Notes under the pieces: generated by a model
What the model saw: the letters and a program-made list of their open reading frames with translations, nothing else
Databases searched by the model: none
What the model was told of the DNA's origin: nothing
From: a virus
Lineage: Duplodnaviria > Caudoviricetes
Direction: 5' to 3' (one strand)
IMG/VR virus record: IMGVR_UViG_3300024325_000006
Coordinates: 1-41,577 of that record
Length of the DNA: 41,577 nucleotides
In this document: positions 2,934 through 21,654 of the stretch, one piece after another
Position numbering within the stretch: position 1 is the stretch's first letter
Layout of the letters: each line of letters opens with the position of its first letter
Program-made: the position numbers and the translations under genes

Positions 2934-2974
2934 TGCTATAATCTAGCTAAGGAAAGCCCTACATAGGGCTTTTT
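2934..2974 (+). promoter_or_regulatory. Late promoter + leader terminator hairpin, copy 1
   Basis: TGCTATAAT-N7-AGGAAAGCCCT-ACAT-AGGGCTTTTT. Confidence 0.8.
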
Positions 2975-3009
2975 ATTGTCCTAAAACCTACGTAACAGAT
3001 ACGGATTTC

Positions 3010-5139
3010 ATGAACCCCACCAATCCATATAGCCAGAAGCAGAACGTTTTAGAAGAATCTTTTACCGAATTGCATACAGATGCCAAAGACTTTGAAGAGC
3101 TTAGCCTCAGCATGTCCGATGATGATTTGGACAAGATGCTTATTACCTCGCTCGAGACAGATCGTGATCACTGGAACAGGAAGCCCTGGAATCTTCAGGA
3201 GACTGATGTGGTCAACACGGCATTTTTATTGGGGGACCAGATTAATGATAGAGAGTATTTGGCAGGCGAGACAAGGTATCAGGATAATCGCTTGTATAGT
3301 TCAACGCGTGCAATCCTAAGCTATGCGACCGGCCAATTGGCTAAACCGGATATCACACCCAGTCGTGGAGACGAGATATACCTTAAAGGTGCTCGTGACA
3401 TTGGATCGGCTTTATACCAAGATTCAGCTGATGATCATGTAGATTTGCAAGTGCGTGCTGCAGTGCTGAATCTTATTAGCCGTAAACGAGCCTATATTAA
3501 GCTTCGCTATGATCCAAATATTAGTGCCTTTGGCAAGGTGATTAGTGAGGTATGTAATCCTGAGGACATTATACTGGGGCGTTACTCGGCTTACATGAAA
3601 AATCCAGAGAAGATCTATCATCGGCTACGCTGCTCTGTCGGTGAACTTTGTGCCCGCTTCCCCGATAAAGAGGCACAGATTAAAGATGCTTTCTCAGTAC
3701 GTCGTGGTGTATATACGCAAGTCTCTAAGATGATCGAGTACTTTGAATGCTGGTTCACTTACACCGGCGATGATCTAAAGCCCAAAGAAGGTGTTTGTTG
3801 GTTCATATACGAGAAACATTTGATCCTTGATAAGATGCCGAATCCCAATTGGATCTATCTCAAGACGCGGAAGAAGGAAATGGAGGCAAATGTTACTCTT
3901 ATACCTCCAAAGCCATTCGTAATCTTTAACCATATTAATACTGGGCATTCAGCTATTGATGAAACCTGTTTGATTGAGCAGGCGTTACCACTACAGCGTA
4001 TGCTTAACAAGCGTTTGCGACAGATTGGCGAGAACGCTGATTATGTAAACGGCCGTTGGGTATATTCCAAGAAGGCTTTTAGTCAAGAAGATGCACGAGG
4101 ACTCATCAATAAGGGTGCGCGGACGCTTGGGGGTGTGGATCGTGAGGATGTGACTGGCGCTCTTATGAATGTGGCCCCCAACCAATTGGGTCAGTGGGTA
4201 GAGAATACCGTATTTGACTACCGTAATGAGATCGACGGGCTAATGGGTACCCCCTCCCAATTTAAGGGTTCTGATCCGACAACTCATGACACCCTTGGCC
4301 GCGATCTTCTTCTTAAGCAACAAGCTGGCGCTTTACAAGATGATCTTGTGCGTGCGGTATCGGTTGCCATGAGTCATTACTATGAGATTAAGCTCCAGCT
4401 TTGGCGCGTGAATTATACCGATGACTATTGGTTCCAGACTAAGGGTGGAGATGGTAAGTACGAGTTTATCTTGATTAATGGTGATAGGATTGACACGAAT
4501 GTTAAGGTGGGCGTGCAGGTTGATAGTACATTGCCTCTTGATAAAGCAAGCATCCGCCAGACCGCTATGGACTTGGCAAATCAGAATAAGATCGATTACA
4601 AAACTCTCATGGAAGATCTCGGCTTGCCTAATCCTGATGTTCGGGCCGAGCGTTACCTCAAGAGTGTTATTGACCCAATCAACTTCTTGAAATCCGTGGA
4701 AGTGGGTCAGATTAATGCTGAGGCTGAGTCCGATATTCAATTACTCATCATGAACAAGACTCCGGAAGAACGTGACAACTACGATGAGAATTACTTCAAC
4801 TACTACAATAAGGTTCTAGCTAGTAACCGTTTCCAGAAACTGCAAGGTACAGATCCACAGGCTGCACAGCGTGTCACAATGTTCTTGGCTGCAATCCAAC
4901 ACACTATGATGCAGTCACTTAACATCTCTGAGTCACTTATGGATCAAGCTGGCATTGTTAATGACCCAATGCCGATGCCCATCCCGAAGACTAGTATACG
5001 CATTCAAGGACAACTTGATCCTAACCAGAGTGCTCAAATGGCTGGGGTCCAACCTGATGCACAGCCACCAAATGTCCCTGGTCCAGCAAATCCCCAGAGT
5101 ACATCCGCACCTGCTCCTCAAGCTCCGCCAGTTAAATAG
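3010..5139 (+). CDS. Portal protein (P22-like size)
   Basis: 709 aa, follows terL, helical with Pro/Gln-rich tail. Confidence 0.8.
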   Translation: MNPTNPYSQKQNVLEESFTELHTDAKDFEELSLSMSDDDLDKMLITSLETDRDHWNRKPWNLQETDVVNTAFLLGDQINDREYLAGETRYQDNRLYSSTRAILSYATGQLAKPDITPSRGDEIYLKGARDIGSALYQDSADDHVDLQVRAAVLNLISRKRAYIKLRYDPNISAFGKVISEVCNPEDIILGRYSAYMKNPEKIYHRLRCSVGELCARFPDKEAQIKDAFSVRRGVYTQVSKMIEYFECWFTYTGDDLKPKEGVCWFIYEKHLILDKMPNPNWIYLKTRKKEMEANVTLIPPKPFVIFNHINTGHSAIDETCLIEQALPLQRMLNKRLRQIGENADYVNGRWVYSKKAFSQEDARGLINKGARTLGGVDREDVTGALMNVAPNQLGQWVENTVFDYRNEIDGLMGTPSQFKGSDPTTHDTLGRDLLLKQQAGALQDDLVRAVSVAMSHYYEIKLQLWRVNYTDDYWFQTKGGDGKYEFILINGDRIDTNVKVGVQVDSTLPLDKASIRQTAMDLANQNKIDYKTLMEDLGLPNPDVRAERYLKSVIDPINFLKSVEVGQINAEAESDIQLLIMNKTPEERDNYDENYFNYYNKVLASNRFQKLQGTDPQAAQRVTMFLAAIQHTMMQSLNISESLMDQAGIVNDPMPMPIPKTSIRIQGQLDPNQSAQMAGVQPDAQPPNVPGPANPQSTSAPAPQAPPVK

Positions 5140-5182
5140 GGTTGTGGTATAATAAACAGATCATACTGACAAAGGAGTACTA

Positions 5183-6133
5183 ATGGCTGAAGATAAACCA
5201 GCACCCACAGAGGAGCAAATCAAGGCAGCTAATGAAGCCCAAGAAGCTAAATGGCAAGGTGATTTTAAAGAGGAAGACCTGACAATTCCTTACAAACGGG
5301 AGAACAAGAGTGAATCTGCGAAGGGAAGCAAAGATTCTACTGGGAACAATACTGGAGGAGGTGGTGATTCAAACGAAGAAGATGAAGAAGAGGATAACTC
5401 GCCTAAGGAAGTCGAACAATACTCAGAACCCGCACCAGCCCTGACCGTTGAAGATCCTGGAGATTATAAACCTGCTGATTACTCTTTTGAGGTGACACTT
5501 AAAGATGGCAAGACGGTCAAAGTTACAACACCCGAAGAAGCAGAAAAGTTGGCAGATGATCCTGATAACTTCGAAACCCCCAAGCAACTCATGGACTTCA
5601 TCAACAAGCAGAACAAGATGCAACGTAATCTTGACAGGGATTATGAGAAGTGGGAATCACAGCACAAAACATTTACTGAACAGCTCAAAACTGAAACAGA
5701 TAGGCGAAAAACGGTTGATAACTATGTTGCCGAGTTCCAGTATTTAGTTGATAAAGGTAAATTACCGCCAGTTGCTAAGGAATATCTGGATGCCGATTGG
5801 TCTGATCCTGAAGTTGCTAAACAACCCGGGGTTAAAGAGCAAATGGCCCTCCTTAACTATATGATTAAGGAAAATAATGTACGAACTAAAGCTAATATAA
5901 AGCCTCTTACCTCAGTTGTGGATGCCTATTACGCTTGGAAAGAAGATGAAGGCGAACAAGAGAAGGCGAAAGAGGCCGAAGAGGCTAAGAAGGCCGCTGG
6001 CGAAGCTCGCAAGACTGCAAGTGCTCGTGTGGCTGGCGTATCTCCCGCGCAACAGGGTAGTTATGTACCTAAGGGTATCGCCGTTGGTAATCCCAACGTG
6101 TTTAAACGCGGTGCTGCCGTTTGGGATGACTAA
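5183..6133 (+). CDS. Capsid scaffolding protein
   Basis: Acidic, coiled-coil, between portal and capsid; TGGTATAAT upstream and AAAGGAG RBS. Confidence 0.65.
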   Translation: MAEDKPAPTEEQIKAANEAQEAKWQGDFKEEDLTIPYKRENKSESAKGSKDSTGNNTGGGGDSNEEDEEEDNSPKEVEQYSEPAPALTVEDPGDYKPADYSFEVTLKDGKTVKVTTPEEAEKLADDPDNFETPKQLMDFINKQNKMQRNLDRDYEKWESQHKTFTEQLKTETDRRKTVDNYVAEFQYLVDKGKLPPVAKEYLDADWSDPEVAKQPGVKEQMALLNYMIKENNVRTKANIKPLTSVVDAYYAWKEDEGEQEKAKEAEEAKKAAGEARKTASARVAGVSPAQQGSYVPKGIAVGNPNVFKRGAAVWDD

Positions 6134-6141
6134 AAATATAC

Positions 6142-6205
6142 TTGCAATGTGATATGACATAGTTTATTCTGTCAACAGGATAGCCCTGCGAGAGCGGGGC
6201 TTTTT
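6142..6205 (+). promoter_or_regulatory. Late promoter + leader terminator hairpin, copy 2
   Basis: TTGCAA-17-TATTCT-N6-AGGATAGCCCTGC-GAGA-GCGGGGCTTTTT. Confidence 0.8.
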
Positions 6206-6229
6206 GTTTTTAGAAACTAAGGAGAATTT

Positions 6230-7303
6230 ATGTCAGCCACTGCACAAAACGACAGGGTAAACAACATCACCTTACAGGACTACAATGCTTCTGTAGTAGA
6301 CACGATCAACAAATCGAGCGAGATCATGAAGCGCGTTGTGTCTCGCCCTGAACGATGGAATGGTCGAAGCTATAGTTCGCCGATCTTCACCAATAACTCA
6401 CAGCTTGGCACGAGCTTCAAGGGGACTGAGACCTTTGATACCGCAATTGACTACAATACGGCACAAATGACTTGGTTCCCTACTGGTTATGCTCAGCCAG
6501 TTGGCGTGTCGGTTGTTGAACGTTCGATTAATGCCACGCCGAGCGGTGTCGTTGACCTTTACAAGTCTTCCTACCAGTACGCTCAGAACTCGATGATTAC
6601 CGCCTTGGGTCAAATCTTCTACGGTTTTGGTAACGGTAATGACTTTGATGGTCTTGGTGTGATTGTCGATGATGGTACTACCACTTCTACTTACGCTGGT
6701 TTGAGTCGTACGACCTATCCATCGATCAATGGTTTTGTCAGTGCCGCATCTGGTGGTGTACTTGATCTGGATCTTATGGCTTCCGCTGATGATGGTGCTA
6801 CTATTTCTGGTAATGAATCAGAGACACCAAATGTCATCATGGCTACTCAGACCGTCTGGAGCCTATATGAGAGCCTTTTGAGCCCTACCGTAACAGCTCG
6901 CTATGAAGCACAAGGCGGATCATTTGTTGATGGTTCTACGGCCGTTAAACAGAGTGTTAGTCAGAGCGACGCTCTTTGGCTCAAGGCTGGTGCCACAAGT
7001 GTTAGCTTCCGTGGTAAACCACTTGTGCGCGACCAGAAATGTACTGCTGGGCAGATGTTCGGTCTCAACGAGAATTGGTTCTACTTTAAGAGCCTGAAGA
7101 TGATGGGTCTGGACATGATCGCCACCGCTGAAGATGTAACCGCCGGTGCATATGAATCTTACAAAGTATCTGCCTTCCAGTTCCGTGAGCCTTTGATGCC
7201 AGTTAACCAATTGGCCGAGGTTGGTATCTTCGTAATGTACGGTCAATTTTACTGCGAGAATCCCAATCGTAACTTCAAAATTACGGGAATCACCACCACT
7301 TAA
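6230..7303 (+). CDS. Major capsid protein (HK97 fold expected)
   Basis: 357 aa after scaffold; FYGxG..DFDGL and C-terminal YGQFYCENP pattern. Confidence 0.82.
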   Translation: MSATAQNDRVNNITLQDYNASVVDTINKSSEIMKRVVSRPERWNGRSYSSPIFTNNSQLGTSFKGTETFDTAIDYNTAQMTWFPTGYAQPVGVSVVERSINATPSGVVDLYKSSYQYAQNSMITALGQIFYGFGNGNDFDGLGVIVDDGTTTSTYAGLSRTTYPSINGFVSAASGGVLDLDLMASADDGATISGNESETPNVIMATQTVWSLYESLLSPTVTARYEAQGGSFVDGSTAVKQSVSQSDALWLKAGATSVSFRGKPLVRDQKCTAGQMFGLNENWFYFKSLKMMGLDMIATAEDVTAGAYESYKVSAFQFREPLMPVNQLAEVGIFVMYGQFYCENPNRNFKITGITTT

Positions 7304-7332
7304 ATAATAGAAAGGAACGAGGAGAATATACT

Positions 7333-8067
7333 ATGGGTTTATCCGCATCAATTCAAATCACCGACCAAGATATCTATCAGCAACAGTCCGTAGCACCCGC
7401 TGAACGTATTGGTCAGGTGGCCACTACACCAAGCGGCAAGATGTTCGCACTTGCTAAAGCTGGAGGAGCATTAACAGCTGGTCAGATTACTGAACCAGTT
7501 GCCGTGACCGCTAACTATGCCACTCGTACGCTTACAACGGCAGTTGCACAGTATGCCAATCAAGTGACGGTTCCTCTTGGTACAACCGCCTCTGCTGACG
7601 CTTTTATCGGCTTTTGGCTAGTAGTCACTGATGGCACAGGTAAAGGTCAAGGTGCCTATTACATTACCGGTAACACAGCCGCGACCGCTGGTAACAGTAA
7701 TACCACCATTGTTACGGTTAGCGGTGCAATCAATATCGCTCTTGATACAACCAGTGTTGTGGGTATTTACCCGAATCAAGAGGTGACTGTTATCCAGCAC
7801 ACCGCTGTAGTTGCCATCCCTTGCGCTGGTGCTCCAGTTATCAACATCACTTCTGGTAACTACTTCTGGAATCAAATACAAGGTATGGCCTCAATCCTTA
7901 GTGATGGTGCTATTACCAAGAATGTTCAAGGTATCCCATCTGATGCAACTGCTGGTTCTGTAGAGATTCGAGTAGACGCTACAATAGTCCCTCCTGTTGG
8001 TTATGCTCCAGAGCTTACTGTTACGACCAAGTACTCACCATTCGTTCTAACACTTGAAGGTTTGTAG
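7333..8067 (+). CDS. Capsid decoration/minor capsid protein
   Basis: Beta-rich A/G/T protein after the capsid gene with GNYFWNQIQG motif. Confidence 0.55.
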   Translation: MGLSASIQITDQDIYQQQSVAPAERIGQVATTPSGKMFALAKAGGALTAGQITEPVAVTANYATRTLTTAVAQYANQVTVPLGTTASADAFIGFWLVVTDGTGKGQGAYYITGNTAATAGNSNTTIVTVSGAINIALDTTSVVGIYPNQEVTVIQHTAVVAIPCAGAPVINITSGNYFWNQIQGMASILSDGAITKNVQGIPSDATAGSVEIRVDATIVPPVGYAPELTVTTKYSPFVLTLEGL

Positions 8068-8075
8068 GTTTTATC

Positions 8076-8597
8076 ATGACCCATCTATATATTGAAAAAT
8101 ATCGCGAAGAAGTACGACTTAAAGGTATCCAGACTAAAAAACCTGTTCTTTTGTCCGGTAGCGCCGCTACTTTGAGTGTAGGTGGGACGTCGACCTTCAC
8201 CGGTGTAGCTACCTTCACCGCTACTCCAGTCTTTAGTGGGGGTCAAGTTCGGTCCAACATACAGTTAAGTGCTCTAGTAGGGGCCACAGTTGTCCTTACG
8301 GCTGCTGACTCAGGTGCGGTACTTATTAATCGTTCCACGTCAGGAAGCCCATCTTGGACATTACCTACCAATGTTGCAGGATTATTCTATACCTTCTACG
8401 TGCGTGATGTCACCACTGGCTTTACAGTTACTGGCGGTACTATTAAGGCCAAAACTTCCTCCACTGGCACCGCCATTAGTGGTACGACTCTGACGAATAC
8501 CCAAGCTACTGCGGTAGTTGGCGACACGATAACGCTACTGGCTGATGGGACAAACTGGATAGCCACTACTCAGTCTGGCATCTTTGCGGCGACATAA
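8076..8597 (+). CDS. Virion structural protein (small fibre-like)
   Basis: T/S/G-rich, WTLP...DGTNW pattern. Confidence 0.5.
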   Translation: MTHLYIEKYREEVRLKGIQTKKPVLLSGSAATLSVGGTSTFTGVATFTATPVFSGGQVRSNIQLSALVGATVVLTAADSGAVLINRSTSGSPSWTLPTNVAGLFYTFYVRDVTTGFTVTGGTIKAKTSSTGTAISGTTLTNTQATAVVGDTITLLADGTNWIATTQSGIFAAT

Positions 8598-8607
8598 GGG
8601 AGATTAT

Positions 8608-8850
8608 ATGTCTGACACACACATTAATGCTTATTTTGAAGAGGTAGCTCAGGCCGAAAAGCGGGTACTCCAAGCGCATGCCGAATGGGAGACCGCTAAG
8701 AATCAATTAGAGGCTAAGAAAAAAGAAGTTGGTTATGAAGAACTCGAAACTGAACCTACACAAAAACCTGAAAAGGATATTGCATCGGTAGATAATGAAA
8801 AGAGTGATGCCGATTCAAGGTCTAAGAGCATCTTTCATAAAAATAGGTAA
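8608..8850 (+). CDS. Hypothetical protein
   Basis: AAGGGAG RBS before ATG 8608. Confidence 0.6.
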   Translation: MSDTHINAYFEEVAQAEKRVLQAHAEWETAKNQLEAKKKEVGYEELETEPTQKPEKDIASVDNEKSDADSRSKSIFHKNR

Positions 8851-8867
8851 TTCGTCTATACAATATT

Positions 8868-8892
8868 GACCGCCTCTCTTGAGGCGGTTTTT
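8868..8892 (+). terminator. Intrinsic terminator
   Basis: GACCGCCTC-TCTT-GAGGCGGTT-TTT. Confidence 0.75.
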
Positions 8893-8925
8893 GTTTTATT
8901 TGCAACATATGCTATCATTCCGCAT

Positions 8926-9147
8926 ATGGATATCACAGAGTTAGAGGTTCGTATAGCTGCTACCCAGCAGCTTTTTGATGAGAAGGAAGCAGAACGCCAA
9001 AAGTACCTAAAACTCGCCGAGGAGTGTTTTATAGAAGTTACCCAACTACAGGGTGAATTCCGTGTTTTAAACAGATTATTGGAAGAAATAAATAAAAGGG
9101 TTGACCCAAATACCATAACGGTCCAGCCCGAGGAGGAAAGTAACTAA
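8926..9147 (+). CDS. Hypothetical coiled-coil protein, probably leaderless
   Basis: TGCTATCAT (8910-8918) lies 7 nt before ATG 8926. Confidence 0.6.
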   Translation: MDITELEVRIAATQQLFDEKEAERQKYLKLAEECFIEVTQLQGEFRVLNRLLEEINKRVDPNTITVQPEEESN

Positions 9148-9791
9148 TGGCTATCGTTGGCCCAGGTGCAGCTCAAGAGCAAGAACTAGATATTAAACCT
9201 TTGCTCGAAGGTGCGAGCGAGTATGAGTATGTTACCATTCTGAACCCCTTAACCGATGACTTTGCAGTTAGGGTTGCACAGGATATACCGGTAAATGTGC
9301 CTTACACGGCAAAGACCCAAGAAGGAACAATTATAGATGAGGGACAATTAGGATCGGTTTTTGGTGCCTCTTTGAGGAACAAGGACTTTAAGGGGCGTAG
9401 ACATGTATTTATGGATACGATCATTGAAGCTGGTAAAACTATTATTTTAAAGGGCAGTGAGGCTCAGGTGGCGGTTAGACAACTTGTTAATGAAATATTG
9501 CAGCGAGAGGGGCACTCACGTCTTATGGCCGATCCTACGCTGCGTAAACAGGTGGAAGAACGCATTATCCAGAGTAGAGGACCAATACAAGATCTTATGG
9601 ACAGGTCTATACAGACTCCCCGAAATCAGATAGATGAAGCAATAAGCAGATCGAATGAGGCACGAGATGAAGAAGCCTTCCCCGAACTTAGACAAGAAGC
9701 TGGAGGCGCAGCGACAGAAGTTGCTAATACTTCAAGCGGAAGTCAAGAACAGCGAAGACCAGTGGGCCGTCCAAAAAAAGCAAATAGCTGA
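9147..9791 (+). CDS. Hypothetical protein
   Basis: GAGGAGG RBS, coupled start/stop; C-terminal GRPKK. Confidence 0.7.
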   Translation: MAIVGPGAAQEQELDIKPLLEGASEYEYVTILNPLTDDFAVRVAQDIPVNVPYTAKTQEGTIIDEGQLGSVFGASLRNKDFKGRRHVFMDTIIEAGKTIILKGSEAQVAVRQLVNEILQREGHSRLMADPTLRKQVEERIIQSRGPIQDLMDRSIQTPRNQIDEAISRSNEARDEEAFPELRQEAGGAATEVANTSSGSQEQRRPVGRPKKANS

Positions 9792-10443
9792 GGACACTCG
9801 AGTAACAATCGAGACTTCTAGGAAAGCGCTTGTTGATGCTACTGTAGAAGCCAAGGCTCAACTTGACACGCTTTGGAAGCAGATAGAGAGCGGGCGTCAA
9901 CAATTCGAGGCCCTCAAGAAAGAGCAGACTGCCGAGATAGTTGCCCTTGATCAGTCCATTAGTGATCTTGAGCATGAGCAAAAGGTCCTGTCCCATACCA
10001 ATGCTACTCTCATGGATGACAATCGTGCTCTTGAAAGCGACATATCTGTTAGACAAGAGAGAGTTGATGAGCTCAAAACGACTAACGAGAAGCTATCCGT
10101 TAACATAGCTGAACTGAATGTCCAGCAAGAACAAGTTGAGGATAAATTGGTGCACTGCCAATTGCAGCTTAAGGCCATTAAAGAGGAAATTCAACGTTTA
10201 GAGAGCCATATCGAGACCCAAACAGAGCAATTTAACAAAGATATAGCTATTTTGGAGCAGCGGAAAGAGTCTTTGACTCAAGAAATAGTCGAAAACCGCA
10301 TCAACGATGATAAAGTACGAGAGAACCTCGCCACGTGGTCTGCGAAGCTGAACGAATTAGACAAGAATCTTCGTATTAGAGAAGCAAAAGTCAGCGAGCA
10401 GGAAAAATCGATCGTAAGGAACTATAATTTGCTCCACACATGA
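9655..10443 (+). CDS. Coiled-coil protein (start uncertain)
   Basis: Heptad-rich 262-aa ORF. Confidence 0.65.
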   Translation: MRHEMKKPSPNLDKKLEAQRQKLLILQAEVKNSEDQWAVQKKQIAEDTRVTIETSRKALVDATVEAKAQLDTLWKQIESGRQQFEALKKEQTAEIVALDQSISDLEHEQKVLSHTNATLMDDNRALESDISVRQERVDELKTTNEKLSVNIAELNVQQEQVEDKLVHCQLQLKAIKEEIQRLESHIETQTEQFNKDIAILEQRKESLTQEIVENRINDDKVRENLATWSAKLNELDKNLRIREAKVSEQEKSIVRNYNLLHT

Positions 10444-10483
10444 TACAATTAACCCTAGGATAGCCCTGTAACTGGGGCTTTTT
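10441..10483 (+). promoter_or_regulatory. Late promoter + leader terminator hairpin, copy 3
   Basis: TGATACAAT-N7-AGGATAGCCCT-GTAACT-GGGGCTTTTT. Confidence 0.8.
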
Positions 10484-10491
10484 ATATTATC

Positions 10492-10782
10492 ATGGCAGGA
10501 AGAGGCTCCCAATCCCCGAATCAGCGTGAAGGTCTCAGTGCTATATCGAGTATTACTGGCGATAATGAATATGTCTATAGTACTGATCATGCACTCAATG
10601 TTACCATAGATGGCTCACTCATAACTGAGCCTTTCGATTATATTAGTGGTTCATATCCCAACTCGACTACAGAGGTTTATACCTACAAATTAGGGGGTTC
10701 AGGTGGTGTCACTGTGGCCACAGTGACAGTAGTGTATGTCGATTCCACCAAAGAAGAAATAAGCTCAGTGACAAAGGTATAG
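10492..10782 (+). CDS. Hypothetical virion protein
   Basis: First ORF of the fibre cluster. Confidence 0.65.
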   Translation: MAGRGSQSPNQREGLSAISSITGDNEYVYSTDHALNVTIDGSLITEPFDYISGSYPNSTTEVYTYKLGGSGGVTVATVTVVYVDSTKEEISSVTKV

Positions 10783-10785
10783 TGT

Positions 10786-12771
10786 ATGGGTTTTCGTTTT
10801 AACCCCATTACTGGACAGCTCGATCTCGTTTCTTCTGGTGGAGGTTCAGGTGTAGGTAATGCTAGTGTCACGGTGGCGGCTTTCGGGAGCACTCTTCCGG
10901 CTGACTTTGTGTGTGCTTCGGCTGCGGGCAATCAAGTAGAGATCAACCAGGCAATAGTTGCTGCAAATGCCTTGCCTACGGGTGGAGTCGTATACCTTCG
11001 TGCTGGCAATTATGTCGTGTCTGGGAACGGGATTGTGCCACTCTCTAACGTGACGCTCGTGGGTGAGTTTGGGGCCACCATACTAAGACATGATGGCAGT
11101 GCAAGCAGCTATACAGGGATTGGTATTCGGCCTGTGATTCATGATAACGGTTCGCCATTCGATAATTTCGGAGTCGAGAACCTCACATTTATAGGTAACA
11201 ACGCTAGCTCTAGCACCTCCTGTTCTATCTATCTGACTGGTAGTAATGACCCTGATAGCCCCGGTGCCCCAATCATCTCTAACTTCTTTATGCATAATGT
11301 TACGATCAAGGACAATACCTCATTACCTATTAGGCTCTTTGGTTTAAGTGGGAAGCTCAACGTACTTGCTTGTGAATTCAACCACAATGCTGATGCTGGA
11401 TTTGGTTGGAATGAAGAGGTTATTTTTATGAGTAATCACTCTATTGATAGTAAAGACAATGGTTTCTCAATCAGTCGAGGTAACCAAAAAGTTATTTGTG
11501 TGGGAAATACAGTGGAGAACCCCACATTTTGGGGTATATGGCTGTCTGGCTTTTCTAATGAGCTAGGCCCCACGGAGCTTGTGTGTAACGGTAACGTGGT
11601 TATAAACTCCAAAAATTCAGGCATTGGCCTTAAGGGCTCTCCAAGCAAAGGTTCGATATGCGGTAACTACATCGATCAAAATCACAATCGCCCTTCGAAC
11701 AGTGATATTGATGGCATACAAATCTATGGAGACAGCAGCATACTACGGGCTAGCCAACTGGCGGTTAGTGGCAATACTATCATCAACGCTGCCCGGGCCG
11801 GTATATCTGTTTCTGATGCCGATAACGTGTCCATAACAGGCAACCTTATCCTTGATCCTGGCACCCAGTTTTTTGCTGATGGGACAACCCCCATCCTATC
11901 AAGTGATACGACGACAAACGCCGGCGTTTTGTCTACCCATCTTAGTAATAACAATATATGGGTGGATGGCAACGCCATATACGACACGCGCACTATTCCT
12001 TTCTGCAATTGGGATATCTGGAAGATACAAAGCACGGCTTCTGGTCTTGTCTCTGGTACCAACTACAGTTTGGGGATGAGAAACCAACGGAACAGTCTTG
12101 AGTTGATAAATATACCTGTTGAAGCTGGTAATCCGGTGGTTTTAGATGTCAACGGCCCAGATACCAACATTGACGTCCAACTGAACATTCAAGGGGCGGG
12201 CCAGTTCATAGTGCATGCCGCGAATGGTGGTGGAGTCAATAGTGAGACGGCCGCTGTTGGTACCAATGCCCAATCAGTATATCGGATGAGCGCTGGTGCA
12301 GCTTCGACGCCTATTGGTCAATTGACTTCTACAAGAATTGATGCCTCAACGAGCTCCATAGTCGCTCTCAGCCCGCTCCAGAATGGCAGCCTGGCTTCAG
12401 TCACCACAGGTGCTCCATTCTATGTGCAGGGCTCTGACAGCGCTAGCAATGCTTGGATAGGTCTAAAAGCCGGTATCGCCTTTAAACGTACTACCGTATC
12501 CGATGTGGGGTACACAGTGAGCCGTGGCGATTACATAGTCGCTTATATCACTCTGACAAGCACTCATACTGTCACATTGCCAGATGCTACGTTGTTAGCC
12601 GGACGCTCGTATATAATCAAAGATGAGAACGGCCTTGTGACAAGTTCAATCAACATTGTCATTGCTACCACTGGTGGCCAGACTATTGACGGTTCATCGA
12701 CCATAACTATCAAAGTGCCATATACAGCCATAGCGGTATATAGTAATGGTACAAACTGGAGCATAATATAA
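10786..12771 (+). CDS. Tailspike/fibre with right-handed beta-helix (pectin lyase-like)
   Basis: GGVVYLRAGNY entry motif and repeated I/V-x-GN-x-I/V rungs. Confidence 0.8.
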   Translation: MGFRFNPITGQLDLVSSGGGSGVGNASVTVAAFGSTLPADFVCASAAGNQVEINQAIVAANALPTGGVVYLRAGNYVVSGNGIVPLSNVTLVGEFGATILRHDGSASSYTGIGIRPVIHDNGSPFDNFGVENLTFIGNNASSSTSCSIYLTGSNDPDSPGAPIISNFFMHNVTIKDNTSLPIRLFGLSGKLNVLACEFNHNADAGFGWNEEVIFMSNHSIDSKDNGFSISRGNQKVICVGNTVENPTFWGIWLSGFSNELGPTELVCNGNVVINSKNSGIGLKGSPSKGSICGNYIDQNHNRPSNSDIDGIQIYGDSSILRASQLAVSGNTIINAARAGISVSDADNVSITGNLILDPGTQFFADGTTPILSSDTTTNAGVLSTHLSNNNIWVDGNAIYDTRTIPFCNWDIWKIQSTASGLVSGTNYSLGMRNQRNSLELINIPVEAGNPVVLDVNGPDTNIDVQLNIQGAGQFIVHAANGGGVNSETAAVGTNAQSVYRMSAGAASTPIGQLTSTRIDASTSSIVALSPLQNGSLASVTTGAPFYVQGSDSASNAWIGLKAGIAFKRTTVSDVGYTVSRGDYIVAYITLTSTHTVTLPDATLLAGRSYIIKDENGLVTSSINIVIATTGGQTIDGSSTITIKVPYTAIAVYSNGTNWSII

Positions 12772-14017: not shown

Positions 14018-14057
14018 TGGTAGAATAAGATCAGGATAGCCCTCTCGAGGGCTTTTT
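14018..14057 (+). promoter_or_regulatory. Late promoter + leader terminator hairpin, copy 4
   Basis: TGGTAGAAT-N6-AGGATAGCCCT-CTCG-AGGGCTTTTT. Confidence 0.8.
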
Positions 14058-14076: not shown

Positions 14077-14403
14077 ATGGCCAACAATAACGCTCCATTG
14101 CCCAGAGACGGTAATCATGAGCCAGTACCTCTTGTACCTTCTCGTACGGCCTTGGCAACTACTGTCGATACAACTATCTCTAGTTCTACTACCGTAACAC
14201 TTAATGCTTCTACCACCTTTATTGAGGTGAATGCCCTCAGCCAAGGAATCTACATGAAGTATGGCGCGACTGTTTCGTCCGCTTCTTTTGATGAATATAT
14301 TCAGGCAGGGTCAGTTCGGCATTACTTTATACCCCAGGGGACCACCCAAGTCTCATTCGTTGAGCAAGCAGCGAGCGGTACATTAATCGTTATCGAGAAG
14401 TAA
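14077..14403 (+). CDS. Small virion protein
   Basis: AAGGAG RBS, beta-rich. Confidence 0.65.
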   Translation: MANNNAPLPRDGNHEPVPLVPSRTALATTVDTTISSSTTVTLNASTTFIEVNALSQGIYMKYGATVSSASFDEYIQAGSVRHYFIPQGTTQVSFVEQAASGTLIVIEK

Positions 14404-14404
14404 G

Positions 14405-15838
14405 ATGGCCAGTCGCTTTTGGGTCGGAGGTACGGGCGCCTGGGATGCTTCCGATACAACGCACTGGGCTTCTAGCTCCGGAGGTGCAGGTGGCCAAACA
14501 GTGCCAGGAGCGTCAGATACGGTGACTTTCGATGGTAGTTCAGGTGGTGGCACCGTAACTGTTAATACCAACTTTAGTGTTGTATCTGTCACTATGGGTG
14601 CTTTTACTGGAACCCTTGACTTTGCTACCAACAATAACAGCCCGACAATGGGATCATTTAGTACTACTGGCTCAGGTACCAGAACTCTCAATATGGGTTC
14701 GGGTATATGGACTCTGACTGGTAACGCCGCAACTATATTGAACATGGACATTACAACTAACTTTACCCTTAACTCAGGTACGTGCGTGATCAATGCTACA
14801 TATTCTGGGAGCACGGGCACGAGGACGTTTTCGTTCCCCGGAGTTGCAAAACCATTGTATGATTTCAAAGTATCTGCCGGGTCAGACACAGTAACAACTA
14901 CGGCTCATACGGTTCAGTTTAATGATGTCAACTTTACTGGTTTTACCGGCACTTGGACCCCAGCATCAATGACCGTAATGGGTAATTTCACTCTTGGAAC
15001 GGGTATGTCCGTGACCACAAACTCGAATGCCACCACCTTTTCTGCGACCTCTGCCAAAAATATCACCATGAACGGTGTGCAATACAATATCCCAATGACT
15101 TTCAATGGAGTAAATGGCTCTTGGACGCTCAAGAGTGATTTAAATCTTGCAGGCGCAACCGCCAGGGCTATAACATTGACCAACGGAACAATTGATGCCG
15201 CAGATAGTGGTAGCAACCACAACGTAACCTGTGGTTCTGTCTCAGCTTCAAATTCAAATACTCGAAGCATTGTTATGGGTAATGGCACTTGGGAGTTGCA
15301 AGGAACAGGTACCGTCTGGACAACAGCTACAACCACTGGGCTTACGATCACACCAGGCACATCCACAATAAAGATTACTGATTCAAGTAACACTAATAAC
15401 ACCTTTGCTGGTGGCTCTACGTTCGGGAATATCTGGTGGGCTCGTGGGGCTAGTACTGCCACCAACACCCTAACAGGAACAAGTACTTTTATTGACTTCA
15501 AAGACACTGGATCGGCAGCTCATACCATCACCTTCCCTAATGTCACGACAACGGTCACCACTTTCACTGTTTCGGGTAGTGTTGGTAATTTGATCACTCT
15601 AGCGCGTACGGGTGGATCGGGCACCTTCACCCTTTCCAAGTCTTCGGGCACGGTGGTTAGGGATTATCTTTCTATCAGCAATTCAACTGCCACTGGTGGT
15701 GCATCTTGGTATGCTGGTGCCAACTCAACAGATGGAGGGGGCAACTCAGGCTGGATATTCTCGGTTCCACAACCTATTATTAGCACGGGTGGCGGGACAA
15801 GTTCGATTTCTAACTTAGCAGCATTGAGGATAGGATAA
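14405..15838 (+). CDS. T/S/G-rich beta-solenoid fibre/adhesin-like protein
   Basis: RFWVGGTGAW start, repeated short strands, GGNSGW near the end. Confidence 0.65.
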   Translation: MASRFWVGGTGAWDASDTTHWASSSGGAGGQTVPGASDTVTFDGSSGGGTVTVNTNFSVVSVTMGAFTGTLDFATNNNSPTMGSFSTTGSGTRTLNMGSGIWTLTGNAATILNMDITTNFTLNSGTCVINATYSGSTGTRTFSFPGVAKPLYDFKVSAGSDTVTTTAHTVQFNDVNFTGFTGTWTPASMTVMGNFTLGTGMSVTTNSNATTFSATSAKNITMNGVQYNIPMTFNGVNGSWTLKSDLNLAGATARAITLTNGTIDAADSGSNHNVTCGSVSASNSNTRSIVMGNGTWELQGTGTVWTTATTTGLTITPGTSTIKITDSSNTNNTFAGGSTFGNIWWARGASTATNTLTGTSTFIDFKDTGSAAHTITFPNVTTTVTTFTVSGSVGNLITLARTGGSGTFTLSKSSGTVVRDYLSISNSTATGGASWYAGANSTDGGGNSGWIFSVPQPIISTGGGTSSISNLAALRIG

Positions 15839-16032
15839 TGTCAGTAGATACCCCGCAAACAGTTTGGCGTGACACAAATGGGCTCACAGAATACGGTAGC
15901 GATGGCCCCAACTACGTCATTGATACAACGGATTTTTACCTAGTAGACCCCAGTGGATTTTATATAACCGATACCGGAGTCACAGCTACCTTAATCCCCG
16001 GAACTGTATGGTCGGAGGATGATTCAGTATGA
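15838..16032 (+). CDS. Hypothetical protein
   Basis: Coupled to neighbours on both sides. Confidence 0.6.
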   Translation: MSVDTPQTVWRDTNGLTEYGSDGPNYVIDTTDFYLVDPSGFYITDTGVTATLIPGTVWSEDDSV

Positions 16033-17021
16033 GCGTTACAGATACCCACGTAATTGGCGATTACACTGCTGCGATAACCATCGACGGCGCAACCCACTTC
16101 CTGCTCATCCAGCCCGGCGGTGCCTCTACGGCTTACAAGAAGATTAGCCGCAATGTTTTGCTTGGGGTTACTGGTCAACCTATGGATATATCTACCAGTC
16201 AGAATGTTACAAATAAGACCTTGGACAACAGTAATATACTGACATTGCGAGACGATCGTTTCACACTTCAGGACAATGTCGATACTACTAAACAGGCACA
16301 ATTTCAACTCTCAGGCATCACCACAGCCACTACGAGAACATATGTACTACCTAACCGAAGTGACACCCTTGTTGATTTAGGAAGCACACAGACACTCACC
16401 AGTAAAACACTCACATCGCCCATTATCACAGGAGGTAGTGTAACTGGTACTACAATCACTACCGATGCCATTGTTGGGCAAAGCGTCGCCAATTCGGGAA
16501 CTGTCTATGGGATGTCCATAACAAGCGCAAAAGTTGGTACCAATGGTGTAGTAACCACTAGCATTACTGATTCTGCTGTGACGCCGGCAAAACTTCTTAC
16601 TGGAACTGGTTCAAGTTGGACATGGCAAAGTTGGACGCCAACATGGACGAATGTGAGTGGTGGTACAACGACATTTGCAAAGTACACACAGATCGGAAAA
16701 ACGATCATCTTTAGGGTTAAATATACCCTTGCTGGCGCTAATGTATCGGGAGCAATTATCTTCTCGACTCCTACAAGTATAAATAGTGATCTTACTACTT
16801 CTTTGACGGATATCGTCACGAGCAGTGCTATGCTTACTGATACAAGTGCGGGATTTTACTTCCCTTCGACAGTTGTGTGGCAGAGTAGCACAACATTAGG
16901 TATATATCCATCCAGTGCCTCCGGTACTTATATGTCTCTTGTAACGGCTAGCTCGACTGTTCCATTCACATGGGCGACTACCGACGTTATAGAAGCGTGG
17001 GGAATATATGAGGCAGCCTGA
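16029..17021 (+). CDS. Tail fibre protein
   Basis: QTLTSKTLTSP repeats, SAVTPAKL, WQSWTP...KYTQIGK tip domain. Confidence 0.7.
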   Translation: MSVTDTHVIGDYTAAITIDGATHFLLIQPGGASTAYKKISRNVLLGVTGQPMDISTSQNVTNKTLDNSNILTLRDDRFTLQDNVDTTKQAQFQLSGITTATTRTYVLPNRSDTLVDLGSTQTLTSKTLTSPIITGGSVTGTTITTDAIVGQSVANSGTVYGMSITSAKVGTNGVVTTSITDSAVTPAKLLTGTGSSWTWQSWTPTWTNVSGGTTTFAKYTQIGKTIIFRVKYTLAGANVSGAIIFSTPTSINSDLTTSLTDIVTSSAMLTDTSAGFYFPSTVVWQSSTTLGIYPSSASGTYMSLVTASSTVPFTWATTDVIEAWGIYEAA

Positions 17022-17948
17022 ATGAGCCTTACTTGGACACAAATGGAGAGAAAGTTCGTACGTTTGGCTCGGGATACTAGTAATGGAGCCCTCGTACAAG
17101 GTCAGGAGGATATGAACACTGGCTATCATATGTTTAACGCTAAGTTCGGACGTTATTACTCACGTAAACAGCAATTTACCGATGTAGTTACCGGCCAGAG
17201 TATTTACCAAACACCTGTAGACAGTATTCGTATCATTGGTATGACGGTTAAGACCGCCGATGGGACCAATACTTATTCACCTCCGATCAAAGAGATACGC
17301 AGTGAGTATGAATGGCGACTTATTAAGACTGTGCCGAACTATTCATCAAGCTGGATTACCTATTACTATGTTCTCGGTAATGACGAGATTGAGGTATGGC
17401 CAGTACCTTCTACGGATATACCTAATGGCATACGCTATTATTATCAGCCGCAGGATCACGACCTATCTGTTGAGGATGTTGTATCAAGTGATCTGTCTCC
17501 AGCTCAGACCTGTGTAATGGTTAATGGCGATGTAACCGTGACAAGCACGGGGAGCACTTTTACAAGCGAAATGGCCGGTCTTTGGTTCAGACTCAATGGA
17601 ATTACTGATTTGACATGGTATGAGATTGTAGACGTCCCTACGTCATCTACATTGACGCTTAAGAGTCCTTTCGTCGGTTTGAGTGGTTCAGGGTTAAACT
17701 TTACTATTGGGCAACTCAGCATTATACCTAATGAGTATCAAGATGCGCCTATTAACTATGCCCTCTATCTTTTCTTTTCAGGAAAAGGAAATGAGCAGAG
17801 GGCCACCTTGCATAAAGGACTTTTTGATACAGCAGTATCAGATGCAGTTTCATCTTATAGCCTCAGTACTGAAGGCAACGTTATTAATGATTCAGATAAT
17901 TACATTAGTCCATGGGTCTTGACACCTTTGCCGGGCATAACTCCATAG
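17022..17948 (+). CDS. Head-tail adaptor-like protein
   Basis: IEVWPVP...YYY and IPNEYQDA motifs; precedes large beta-rich tail protein. Confidence 0.6.
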   Translation: MSLTWTQMERKFVRLARDTSNGALVQGQEDMNTGYHMFNAKFGRYYSRKQQFTDVVTGQSIYQTPVDSIRIIGMTVKTADGTNTYSPPIKEIRSEYEWRLIKTVPNYSSSWITYYYVLGNDEIEVWPVPSTDIPNGIRYYYQPQDHDLSVEDVVSSDLSPAQTCVMVNGDVTVTSTGSTFTSEMAGLWFRLNGITDLTWYEIVDVPTSSTLTLKSPFVGLSGSGLNFTIGQLSIIPNEYQDAPINYALYLFFSGKGNEQRATLHKGLFDTAVSDAVSSYSLSTEGNVINDSDNYISPWVLTPLPGITP

Positions 17949-17955
17949 GTTGCAT

Positions 17956-19956
17956 ATGGGATATCGAGCGTACGTTTACAATTCATGGGTTGGCGGCCAA
18001 GCTGTCGACAAGAAGATTGGTATCGGCAACTCTTTTGCCGACTCCCAAAGTTTAGACTTTCGTAAGTCTCCATCTCAGATAAGTGTTTTGCCAGGTGTTA
18101 CGAGAACAGACAGCAATGTCGTTACAGGACTTGTGCAGAATGAGGTAATGACTGAGACGGGTAGAACGTATTCAGTTGACTCTACTGGCAATGTGTATAC
18201 TTGTAGCCCTTCTGGTACTTGGAGTCTATTTGGGAACATAGGTCAGAGCGGTACGTTTGGCATTAATTATAGACAAGATCAAGACGCTATATATATACCC
18301 GGTATCACGACAGTAAGTTCAATTACTAGTGTTTCGGGCACACCTGTCCTCAATCCTGGTTTTTATGGTGAGTCACAGTCGACCTACAACAACAGTTCTG
18401 ATGCCGGTTTTAACGTAAACTCTGATCAAGCAGGCGGGGCACTGACTACAACTATCCTCACTTCATATAATGATGATGTCTCCACCCAGGAGCGCTTTTT
18501 CCAGACAGATATCCAGCCAATATCTAAAATAGGGGTCAATATAGTCACTAAGGGTACTGGTGATTGGACATTAACCGTTCATGATGGTCTCAATAAGCAA
18601 TTAGCAACTAAAACGGTTACCAGCGCTAATCTAACTGTTGGCGTCAACTACTTTGTTTTTTCTACTCCTGTTCAGGTCAATGTTGGACCAAATGCAGCCC
18701 AAACCTATCACTTTCACCTTACGAGCACTGTGGCTGACGGTACCGTATCCTCAACAGTATCTAATGACCTATCAAGTTGCGACATGCAGCTTTGGGCCAA
18801 CCGGTTAGTGGAGACCAAGAATGGCATCCATCCGCAAGTAACTTTCCAGCAGTTCGAATGCATAGGCAACGGGCGTTATTTAAGCGTCTGGGAAAACCTC
18901 GGTGAAGCAGCGCCCTCTAATTCAGCGTGGCAGCGCCAAAAACTGAGTTTTCCACCCGGGTATGAGGTTTGTGGGTTAACAGTATTTAACGAATACCTAG
19001 TGATTGCTACTGAATTTGTTACTACAAGTAATTCGGCCCAGCAAGGTATTATCTTTTATTGGGATGGTCTATCTGATACCTACAACTATTTCACTCGTAT
19101 ACCAGAGGGTAGTCCAGAATCAATACATGAATACGAGAATGCTGTCTATTATGTGGCCGGTGGTAACTGGTACATAATCACCTCTGTTGCGGCAACCCCC
19201 CAGAAGATCCGACGCCTTCCTGGATCTGAGAATGTCTACACTAGTAGCAATACACCAACTAGAGTTTATCCGAACATGGGTACTGTTCGTTATGGTATTC
19301 ACCTTCTGGGGTGGCCAAGCACAACTTCTAATACTGATATACCATATGGGGTGTATTCTTGGGGCAGTGTTGACTATTCGCAGCCAAATTCCTTCGGCTA
19401 TTCGTACATCTTAAGTACAGGCTCTCAGGCAGTAACGGGTAGCAACAACCTTACCATTGGGATGGTGAAGAATTTTGGCAATATACTTCACATCTCTTGG
19501 CGTGATGACGGTTCAGGGACACCGACCTATGGTGTGGATGTAGTGGATGCAAGCTCCAAGCCAGCGCCTTTCGCGAAGTGGGAATCACTTATATACGACG
19601 CTGGTATGGTCACCAAAGAGAAGCAGGTGAGCTACATAGAGGCTTCCTGGCTCGATATACAAGATGGAGTGAGTATTGTCCTCAAGTACTCGATAAATAG
19701 AGGCCCTTGGGTCTATTCTAGTGGTTCTACATCCAACGTAGCTGGTGGGTTTAGCAATAACAATCTCTGGCAACCAGACAATGAACCAAATTATGGGCGC
19801 TTGGATATTGGCAACAACGATGGTTCGATAGAAGAACGGTTTAACGAACTACAGGTTGGGGTAGATATATACTGCGATAGTACAGTAACAGCTCCCCCTG
19901 TTATTATTGGAGTAAGTGCCATCTTTGACCCCCTATCTACGGAGGCGCTTCAATAA
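17956..19956 (+). CDS. Tail nozzle/tubular protein
   Basis: ~667 aa, beta-propeller-like, podovirus synteny. Confidence 0.55.
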   Translation: MGYRAYVYNSWVGGQAVDKKIGIGNSFADSQSLDFRKSPSQISVLPGVTRTDSNVVTGLVQNEVMTETGRTYSVDSTGNVYTCSPSGTWSLFGNIGQSGTFGINYRQDQDAIYIPGITTVSSITSVSGTPVLNPGFYGESQSTYNNSSDAGFNVNSDQAGGALTTTILTSYNDDVSTQERFFQTDIQPISKIGVNIVTKGTGDWTLTVHDGLNKQLATKTVTSANLTVGVNYFVFSTPVQVNVGPNAAQTYHFHLTSTVADGTVSSTVSNDLSSCDMQLWANRLVETKNGIHPQVTFQQFECIGNGRYLSVWENLGEAAPSNSAWQRQKLSFPPGYEVCGLTVFNEYLVIATEFVTTSNSAQQGIIFYWDGLSDTYNYFTRIPEGSPESIHEYENAVYYVAGGNWYIITSVAATPQKIRRLPGSENVYTSSNTPTRVYPNMGTVRYGIHLLGWPSTTSNTDIPYGVYSWGSVDYSQPNSFGYSYILSTGSQAVTGSNNLTIGMVKNFGNILHISWRDDGSGTPTYGVDVVDASSKPAPFAKWESLIYDAGMVTKEKQVSYIEASWLDIQDGVSIVLKYSINRGPWVYSSGSTSNVAGGFSNNNLWQPDNEPNYGRLDIGNNDGSIEERFNELQVGVDIYCDSTVTAPPVIIGVSAIFDPLSTEALQ

Positions 19957-20504
19957 TGCCTGATATTTATACTGGTAAGTCGACAAAAAGCATTGTCGGG
20001 CCTGGTACCAATATCCCGGGGACCATCGCTACCAGTGATATATCTCGTGTTCTGCCAAGACAGATATCCACTGGAGCTTTAAGAGGAACTCAGAACGTTG
20101 GTTATGGTGGAGTTAAGATAGATGGATCCAACGATAGGATTGTGCTTGGCACTTCAGGACAGTCTGGGACTGGCACAGTAGGGAGTATTGTACTCGACGG
20201 AGCCAACAGTGAGATATCTGTCAGCAATAACATAAGTATAAATGGTGAATCAGATGCCATAATCGTCACTAATACCGACGGCTCTAAAGTTGGTATGGGC
20301 AAGATACCTGGATCCGGCGACTTTGGGTTCTTCGCTCTGGATAACCAAGGCCGTGTACTTATGAAGATCGTTGGTAGCACCCAATACGTCTATGATTATG
20401 CGAATGGTGGCGTGAATGTCATGCAGATTATGAAGTTGCCAGATGGATCGTATGGTTGGGCTGTGGCGGCAACTGGTCAAAACGTTTCGGCAGGATTTAG
20501 CTAA
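19956..20504 (+). CDS. Tail-associated protein
   Basis: Coupled, Gly-rich beta repeats. Confidence 0.55.
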   Translation: MPDIYTGKSTKSIVGPGTNIPGTIATSDISRVLPRQISTGALRGTQNVGYGGVKIDGSNDRIVLGTSGQSGTGTVGSIVLDGANSEISVSNNISINGESDAIIVTNTDGSKVGMGKIPGSGDFGFFALDNQGRVLMKIVGSTQYVYDYANGGVNVMQIMKLPDGSYGWAVAATGQNVSAGFS

Positions 20505-21226
20505 TGACTGTTACCCAGCCCAGCAAGATCAACATGGCGGTACCCCAATATAGGATAGATCAGATTATAGGTATTCATACCGGATCATTTGCAATAGCCG
20601 CTCCTACAGCAATATCCACCCCTAAAACGGCAAGTGATACTTTCCTAACAGGGTTCAATGACACCTGTCTAATCCAGGGCATTTTCTCCGTTGATGGCGG
20701 GGTATCCTGGAATGATTTTGGATCCTATAAGCCCAATCTTTCTACGCCTGCCCAACCGGTTTTGCAGACTGTTACATGCCAAGGATGGGTCACACCAACA
20801 GGTACATTTGAAGCATATGCCCAGAATTTTTATGATAATGTCCACTCCACGGGAACAGCGTATACTGTTAGCTATAAAGTAGTATTCCTGGCCAAGGATG
20901 ATCAGGGAGCCATTACTCCCATACCGACTGCTGAGCTTCTAAACTATGTATCTTCCTATAATTTCCAGAAGATATTCTTAAGTGGTAGGTTCACTAATGC
21001 TGGTACTCCAATCGTCATCGCTCATAACCTGGGATATGTCCCAAAAGTTAGGGCTTGGGGTACTTCGACATCAGTTACCCCTTACCCAACTGGCAGCATG
21101 TTATCTTATGATTGGTTTGGTGGCTCAAATTTTAATATAGAGGTCGACACTAATAATGTTACTTTTGATTCTATTACTGGGTACGGTACTGTCAATATTG
21201 ATTACCGTATTTACCTGGATAGCTAA
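20504..21226 (+). CDS. Tail-associated protein
   Basis: IAHNLGYVP motif. Confidence 0.55.
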   Translation: MTVTQPSKINMAVPQYRIDQIIGIHTGSFAIAAPTAISTPKTASDTFLTGFNDTCLIQGIFSVDGGVSWNDFGSYKPNLSTPAQPVLQTVTCQGWVTPTGTFEAYAQNFYDNVHSTGTAYTVSYKVVFLAKDDQGAITPIPTAELLNYVSSYNFQKIFLSGRFTNAGTPIVIAHNLGYVPKVRAWGTSTSVTPYPTGSMLSYDWFGGSNFNIEVDTNNVTFDSITGYGTVNIDYRIYLDS

Positions 21227-21227
21227 G

Positions 21228-21614
21228 ATGATCATACCTAAGAATCTAGCAGCAGCTGGGGGTCTGGATGGCTTTAAGAACTATCTCTCTTCCAGTTTTT
21301 CGGTGAGTGTTCCAACGCAGAGCTTAGCTGCGGGCAACTTTCTGTCCTTCACCGCCTCCACACCACTCAATAACGCCAATTCAGTATCCCAGGTCCAGAT
21401 TCAATATTCGGGCATATCGAGCAGTTATTACATAATGAATGGTCTTGTGAATACTTTCTGGAATAGTGGTCAGTATGAGATAGAATCGTACTACTATTTC
21501 GATGCTACTAACCTTAATGTCTTTAGTGTGATTGTTAACCAGACAGCTGGGTCCATAACCATACCTAATATAACAATCAACTGCCGTGGCTTTTTGTTTA
21601 TCGCGCCCTTCTAG
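21228..21614 (+). CDS. Hypothetical tail-associated protein
   Basis: ATG follows the upstream stop. Confidence 0.55.
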   Translation: MIIPKNLAAAGGLDGFKNYLSSSFSVSVPTQSLAAGNFLSFTASTPLNNANSVSQVQIQYSGISSSYYIMNGLVNTFWNSGQYEIESYYYFDATNLNVFSVIVNQTAGSITIPNITINCRGFLFIAPF

Positions 21615-21654
21615 TGGTATAATCCCAGTAGGATAGCCCTGATCAGGGCTTTTT
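21615..21654 (+). promoter_or_regulatory. Late promoter + leader terminator hairpin, copy 5
   Basis: TGGTATAAT-N6-AGGATAGCCCT-GATC-AGGGCTTTTT. Confidence 0.8.

Follow-up and report, generated by a model that had tools for sequence, protein, structure and literature searches.

The stretch of DNA analysed here (the window) is an entire 41.6-kilobase virus record, IMG/VR IMGVR_UViG_3300024325_000006 (41,577 nucleotides (nt); Caudoviricetes), which encodes terminase, portal, major capsid and tail spike proteins and an SU10-type adaptor and, besides these, GroEL. Ahead of its virion genes lie five copies of a compact element, here called a gate, in which a promoter-like sequence is followed at once by a terminator-like hairpin (Table 1). 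All five were present, on a single strand (+), where the original prediction had placed them. The sequence AGGA(A/T)AGCCCT stands 7, 6, 7, 6 and 6 nt past the -10 hexamer in gates 1 to 5, respectively, the loops are 4-8 nt long, the 3' arm reads (A/G)GGGCTTTTT, and four of the five sites have an extended-10 TG. Across the record the strict pattern occurs five times forward, with none in reverse and none in a reversed control; a loose pattern is found five times on the plus strand and once on the minus strand, compared with a mean of 0.53 and a maximum of 4 in 200 dinucleotide shuffles. When the start is set by convention, rather than by measurement, at the seventh base past the -10 hexamer, the hairpin starts at +6 or +7 and the U-tract reaches its eighth base at +28 to +32; the predicted RNA of 28-32 nt is close to the abortive product of ~25-30 nt that had been proposed.

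The elements had been described as late promoters heading portal, capsid, two fibre and ejection modules. Family matches bear out the portal, capsid and tail spike labels, whereas no significant database match backs the "second fibre" and "ejection" labels, which follow from position only: in the block behind gate 4, the 108-amino-acid (aa) and 477-aa genes have no family match, and the adaptor lies further on. "Late" likewise comes from the downstream genes, the promoters themselves being of ordinary sigma-70 type. A TAACAG(A/G) box (2993-2999) also lies past gate 1, ahead of a portal start that has no clear ribosome-binding site; 12 of the 13 matches to this box behind elements are in portal leaders, and it is kept in the related record G003, which has no portal gate.

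Table 1. Coordinates of the gates and associated features in the window.
Feature	Position	Strand	Details
Gate 1, before portal-scaffold	2934..2974	+	TG-extended -10 TATAAT 2937-2942; predicted start 2949; GG 2951; stem 2955-2970; U-tract
Gate 2, before major capsid gene	6142..6205	+	-35 TTGCAA 6142-6147, 17 bp spacing; -10 TATTCT 6165-6170; GG 6178; stem 6182-6201; U-tract
Gate 3, before 96-aa gene and tail spike	10441..10483	+	-10 TACAAT 10444-10449; GG 10458; stem 10462-10479
Gate 4, before 108-aa/477-aa genes and adaptor block	14018..14057	+	-10 TAGAAT 14021-14026; GG 14034; stem 14038-14053
Gate 5, before 273-aa/685-aa genes (ejection proteins by position only)	21615..21654	+	-10 TATAAT 21618-21623; GG 21631; stem 21635-21650
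Terminase large subunit	1009..2613	+	Likely co-transcribed with four-cysteine candidate
Four-cysteine protein, all-beta, predicted zinc-binding, no known family	2610..2930	+	Overlaps terminase stop; leading candidate factor
Portal protein, gated	3010..5139	+	PHROGs
Major capsid protein, gated	6230..7303	+	PHROGs major head protein
Internal control: ordinary terminator, then ungated extended -10 promoter	8868..8928	+	Leaderless start 8926; no GG motif
Tail spike, gated	10786..12771	+	Family match
72-aa basic protein, end of groES-groEL operon	25702..25920	-	Second candidate factor; tracks motif, kept in ungated phages

Related loci were collected by capsid and zinc-protein scans, together with ten further near-whole records. 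A detector for TAnnnT, GG, CC, a hairpin and a T-rich tail gave 104 matches on the structural-gene strand and 16 on the opposite strand. Nine plus-strand matches in coding sequence or with long weak folds and five in two duplicate loci were dropped, the 16 minus-strand matches were left unused, and 12 further elements were added, for a final set of 102 elements across 37 records or loci (3-8 per whole record). The unit of a -10 box, 6-11 nt, a GG-N-AGCCC hairpin and a U-tract is repeated in each of 11 related records, and the search of related genomes that had been suggested as a check thus reveals clade-wide recurrence. The detector requires GG and CC, so an unbiased test has to look at the orthologous position, where all 32 distinct capsid leaders have the unit (28 in one comparison, and G010, L141, L142 and L196 in the detector set), with L202 an atypical long form. 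Elements also precede portal, fibre-like, adaptor, putative ejection and some lysis-side genes. TAnnnT lies 6-11 nt ahead of GG in 97 of the 102 elements, the median predicted RNA length is about 29 nt, and an extended TG is seen in 41 of 97 copies; a -35 is present at 23/26 capsid promoters versus 11/71 other copies. Downstream of the 72-aa gene in G006 (about 5750-5800, minus strand), we also observed a promoter and then a longer hairpin and T-run starting AGGCACAGCGCC, possibly an opposite-strand gate.

Several properties bear on what the hairpin does. Its loop ranges from 3 to 9 bases across the set, G-U pairs are tolerated, a U-tract stands on one side only (in 88 of 96 copies 6-7 of its 8 bases are T), and both partners of the outer stem pair vary (A-T 61, G-C 14, T-A 9, C-G 6; n = 96), a pattern of covariation. 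For these reasons the element is, as far as its sequence tells, an RNA terminator and not an operator. Watson-Crick pairs number 179 of 192, versus a shuffle maximum of 116, although this is not a probability as the sequences are related and the folds predicted. A co-oriented upstream gene is found at 49 of 61 copies; however, eight of the 61 copies in whole records are divergent from groES without such a gene, and can therefore only stop the RNA of their own promoter. The alternative named along with the original prediction, that the hairpins merely end upstream transcripts, fails on these eight copies. Ordinary terminators with a promoter downstream in the same genomes contain the motif in none of seven cases; this terminator-then-promoter order follows the capsid operon in these genomes, and the window's example serves as an internal control (Table 1). 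Behind the ungated promoter of that control, the window has three conserved genes (8910-10443; about 73, 214 and 262 aa), as do several relatives.

By itself, the hairpin is a common terminator: of 119 viral loci with AGGAWAGCCC..GGGCTTTTT, 15 have a -10-like hexamer at that spacing (20/124 when the five window sites are counted). In prokaryote genomes, the whole unit gave 14 single scattered matches in 596 gigabases, with 1-2 sites per genome in five genomes, ruling out a general host signal, and Rfam 15 covariance models gave no match at the elements at E<=1. We consider it probable that the gate is a real regulatory terminator. Five Herpetosiphon genomes and a Chloroflexia metagenome-assembled genome share one conserved copy of a promoter-GGATAGCCC-terminator layout (L209 3001-3039, minus strand; also L208, L213, L214, L216 and L218), and the gene downstream of it reads like a glycosyltransferase. 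In the window itself, two more promoter-like hexamers, each with a hairpin and T-run and without the GG motif, lie at 40110-40240, in the extended intergenic stretch ahead of the small terminase.

Conservation of the 5' leader alongside variable loops had been taken as a sign of specific recognition, and the sequence-specific conservation of the leader is supported by the larger set. Among 59 copies, identity from GG+2 to GG+7 is 0.85 within a genome versus 0.64 between genomes (p=0.0005), and that of the two bases before GG is 0.63 versus 0.46 (p=0.0005); neither the -35 region nor the promoter spacer shows such an excess (p=0.17-0.69). The effect persists among the eight closest records (0.62 versus 0.26 at GG+3, p=0.0002). 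These comparisons indicate that specificity is confined to roughly the first ~10 transcribed bases, in a genome-specific dialect: GGA(T/C/A)AGCCC, GG(A/C)AGCCC or GCGGATTTCCCC, with AGGCCACCGCC in G020. The latter (L255-L257) has eight gates of this third dialect, two of them in tandem before the portal gene. A second copy of the motif, without a promoter, was detected in 3/28 capsid leaders at p<0.05, where 1.4 would be expected by chance. The second hairpin covers the ribosome-binding site in L196, L201, L206, L199 and G008; the L196 copy was found by eye, and its partner arm holds the site. Second copies over ribosome-binding sites lend modest support to a reading at the RNA level. Natural dialects such as GGATAGCCC, GGATTTCCCC and GGCCACCGCC might serve as a source of orthogonal switches.

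The 11 records have about 20 genes in common (with the upstream genes of G001 taken from its duplicate locus, L126). The leading candidate for a factor that opens the gates is the 105-aa four-cysteine protein, in which C48, C53, C86 and C96 are invariant or nearly so, with zinc binding predicted, and R28, Y29, R30, R37, R40, W44, Y100 and F102 are kept in 79-100% of both alignments. Its model is confident (predicted local distance difference test score 82.5) and all-beta, with no helix-turn-helix, and a search of 1.8 billion representatives gave 56 relatives. Neither a named family nor a named fold emerged from family and structure searches (best Z 2.8 and 3.3 for two models); both models share an unnamed viral best match, A0A6J5LDH5, the alignment for the second having included members of the first family. 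Profile comparison of the window family with the protein of MW202566 is weak (probability 3.7), and L250 matches the MW202566 protein at E 0.01. An identity as Mis18/Yippee was rejected, as the fold did not confirm a weak sequence match (E 0.03). The Zn_ribbon_Com profile PF10122 found nothing in five records at E<=10, which led us to reject membership of the Com family; PF10122 is also absent among the family matches listed for the protein (all 24 in one search, the best 25 of 32 in another, and those listed in a third). A TG-extended -10 near the end of the terminase gene in 16/28 loci coincides with conserved codons and was not counted as a promoter for the candidate gene. In the second candidate, the 72-aa basic protein, CxxC motifs are seen in G008-G010, L250 and MW202566 and are lost in the window's clade, in the manner of a degenerating zinc ribbon.

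The nearest annotated phage by protein, TM7 phage DolZOral124_53_65 (MG269973; capsid 39.9%, portal 29.5%), resembles the window in having GroES/GroEL and a KGG-repeat protein but differs in having neither gates nor a four-cysteine gene before the portal gene. In its lineage, for which 26 of 29 loci were examined, the terminase gene is followed directly by an ungated portal promoter with no four-cysteine gene between them at 23/23 loci (L246 has a hairpin without a U-tract), capsid promoters are ungated in 6/6, and whole records give no match to the four-cysteine profile. This lineage forms one clade (support 1.0) nested among gated phages, and in its sister L254, as in the outgroups L250, L251 and MW202566, a four-cysteine gene precedes the portal gene and the capsid leader is of promoter-terminator type, the homology of their proteins to that of the window being based on position, cysteine pattern and weak scores. 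The joint absence of gates and four-cysteine gene is a natural experiment that favours this protein as the putative factor. Genes for the 72-aa protein and a 214-aa protein persist in the ungated lineage.

We lean slightly towards a phage factor that opens the gate by acting on the leader in a sequence-specific way, and see about an even chance of antitermination that is local and due to a phage protein reading the leader as RNA rather than DNA. That the factor is the four-cysteine protein is plausible but distinctly less assured. The fullest version, which we offer still more tentatively, is that small zinc-ribbon proteins of an undescribed family recognise the first ten bases of the nascent RNA and block a terminator that would close by about +28, serving as a late-gene timer in phages of probable Saccharibacteria, with some members also unmasking ribosome-binding sites. 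Host polymerase would likely fire the consensus promoters from entry, releasing dead-end RNAs of ~28 bases. The candidate would likely be made earlier, from an ungated message shared with the terminase which gate 1 would also end; as it accumulates, it would bind the emerging GG-N-AGCCC leader and keep the 5' arm unpaired, so that each module is read. The short RNAs could, speculatively, titrate the factor and sharpen the delay. A separate gate for each module suggests action that is local rather than processive. Such a device would be an attenuator without a competing RNA structure or a DNA loading site, and with a private dialect for each phage.

A number of points weigh against this scheme. 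Its main mechanistic weakness would be the very short time for binding before the hairpin closes at about +28. The four-cysteine protein has no known fold, so that RNA binding is a guess, and DnaJ domains are among the structures that it resembles best, at a weak Z of 3.3 or less. Gates and four-cysteine gene were lost together only once, in one clade of near-identical loci; distant homologues might have escaped detection, and G017 and MG269973 each have another small four-cysteine open reading frame (ORF) elsewhere. G020 has its eight gates with no match to the protein profile, in a record cut at the terminase-portal junction; a 51-aa four-cysteine ORF is seen there just past the portal gene. 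When corrected for capsid and portal, motif distance does not significantly follow that of the four-cysteine protein (Mantel partial r 0.23, p=0.13; 0.12, p=0.14), but it tracks the 72-aa, 244-aa, 214-aa and scaffold proteins (p=0.001-0.008; 21 genes tested). Dialects also follow descent, and second motif copies are few. Finally, as the detector required GG and CC and the pairs are predicted folds of related sequences, these counts are tilted towards the model.

The gates could instead work without any trans-acting switch, as leaky constitutive attenuators that end upstream transcripts, set the stoichiometry of the modules and give read-through mRNAs a protective 5' hairpin. AGCCC/GGGCT stems are indeed common among ordinary terminators, most copies have a co-oriented gene upstream, and the related lineage builds its virions without gates; yet the genome dialect and unpaired GG, the copies divergent from groES and the motif-free terminator-then-promoter order elsewhere in the same genomes would all be left unexplained, and the U-tracts are strong, and we regard this explanation as unlikely. 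We give slightly less credence to a global antiterminator that binds RNA polymerase, like P23-45 gp39 or Xp10 p7, and opens the gates blind to sequence, the motif then reflecting within-genome copying or start-site strength. Phage proteins with such action exist (PMC3351154; p7 in PMC9371919), no short binding window would be needed, and the 72-aa and 214-aa core proteins, which have no assigned role, come from other transcription units. However, the dialect is held over only about 10 bases across unrelated sequence contexts, the ordinary terminators of the same genomes lack the motif, and the 72-aa and 214-aa genes are retained where there are no gates.

A little less likely again is antitermination of the Q/AlpA type, with a sigma pause and an element in the -35/-10 spacer. 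Both Q and AlpA depend on a DNA site between -35 and -10 and on a pause element that resembles a -10 (PMC6606751, PMC9371919, PMC7969949), and the sigma-70 promoter followed by an intrinsic terminator that these systems require is present here at the sequence level. Four of the five window copies read NAGGAT at about -1 to +5, like the CACGAT at -1 to +5 of PalpB (PMC9371919); AlpA acts at two promoters, one of which has a terminator predicted from +26 (PMC7969949), and the candidate gene here lies just upstream of gate 1. Against these stand the clade-wide counts, in which the pause-like hexamer (A2 with T6) fits only 16/102 copies and -10-like hexamers in the initial transcript are not enriched (23/97 versus 23.5 in shuffled sequence), the lack of a common spacer element, and the all-beta candidate model with no helix-turn-helix; the Q families PF06530, PF03589 and PF06323 were unmatched in 5/5 records and in general family scans, from which a divergent or AlpA-like protein could escape. 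In the window, NAGGAT stands 6-7 bases ahead of the loop and looks like a -10 hexamer, as would be expected if a late phage factor moved initiation into the loop, with the GG motif as a promoter element and late RNAs lacking the 5' arm. But the hexamer is not conserved as a -10, it stands at a variable distance (6 to 11 nt) from the real -10, and no sigma or activator family is conserved among the core genes, making a start-site switch improbable. Most improbable of all is nucleotide-sensing reiterative transcription in the style of Bacillus pyrG, in which G residues added by slippage pair with the CCC arm: there is a GG near the start and a CCC in the 5' arm, but there are only two G residues, mostly with an A before them, A is the predicted first base in 43/59 copies, and the distance from -10 to GG varies.

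Megablast of positions 1-22000 against annotated phages gave no match, a capsid scan of prokaryote genomes found no relative, and a scan with the MW202566 capsid found none either. As the prokaryote scan was negative, a Saccharibacteria-type host, which is probable, is deduced only from MG269973. The KGG-repeat protein of the window (39733-39936) is like one annotated in that phage, and a search with it matched only itself. Before the groES-like gene (28693-29073) lies a second, different leader with an extended -10 promoter (29174-29086, minus strand), in which a 10-base segment (29153-29144) is complementary to the loop (29115-29106) of a terminator-like hairpin (29127-29094); this pairing changes on both sides in 8/10 records (three by script, five by eye). 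The leader probably controls the phage groES-groEL operon, as a pseudoknot or an antiterminator switch. Hexamer repeats span the record ends (163-545 and about 41420-41577) and are open in several frames, as Ser/Gly/Trp or Val/Arg/Met repeats.

A literature search that did not extend to most subscription journals and supplements found no account of the element. To judge from the sequence comparisons, the gates are real and conserved, and they make up what seems to be an undescribed variant of late expression gated by antitermination, with a candidate factor open to test. If correct, this would be a first regulatory model for phages of probable Saccharibacteria hosts, and the gate is small enough for testing in laboratory strains.

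Local antitermination at the RNA level is known for leader terminators controlled by BglG, LicT and SacY, whose ribonucleic antiterminator (RAT) RNA is a competing hairpin of ~30 nt. In contrast, only 5-6 bases precede the stem of the gate and hence there is no competing antiterminator helix, and no such protein family was found in the family scan. In reiterative attenuation at Bacillus pyrG a GGG run stands at +1, whereas here there is only GG. A closer parallel in type of protein is Com of phage Mu, a small zinc-binding phage protein that reads a short motif in mom mRNA and melts an inhibitory hairpin (PMC6483171). The candidate, with its four cysteines and predicted zinc binding, matches the four-cysteine zinc finger of Com, and the gate leader fits GA-N3-CC, as do the core GAG(N)2CC obtained by SELEX and the mom site, with only four bases alike (PMC6483171). 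However, Com is an activator of translation whose CC(N)2-3GAG target lies in a loop (PMC6483171), whereas the gate loops lack this motif and vary freely, and the hairpin is a predicted terminator.

Like the gates, AlpA of Pseudomonas aeruginosa has multiple target promoters with close terminators (predicted from +26 at PA0807), and its gene lies beside a target promoter (PMC7969949, PMC9371919). AlpA is helical, reads DNA between -35 and -10 and needs a sigma pause, whereas the conserved bases here are transcribed and the candidate is a putative beta zinc ribbon. The original prediction had likened the gates to lambda pR'/tR' with Q, and the lambdoid systems (lambda, 21 and 82) do share an always-on sigma-70 late promoter, an intrinsic terminator and the need for a phage factor (PMC6606751). 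In detail the analogy does not hold: lambdoid Q acts processively from one promoter, through a Q-binding element in the spacer and a -10-like pause element (PMC6606751), whereas the phages studied here have 3-8 separate promoters, each with a terminator from +6/+7, and we found in them no such binding element, conserved pause hexamer or Q-family gene. Known late switches load their antiterminator at one promoter by means of DNA elements and a pause; a gate contained in about 28 transcribed bases, placed before every virion module and read through the 5' end of the RNA would, if our reading is true, be a new mode of phage timing.

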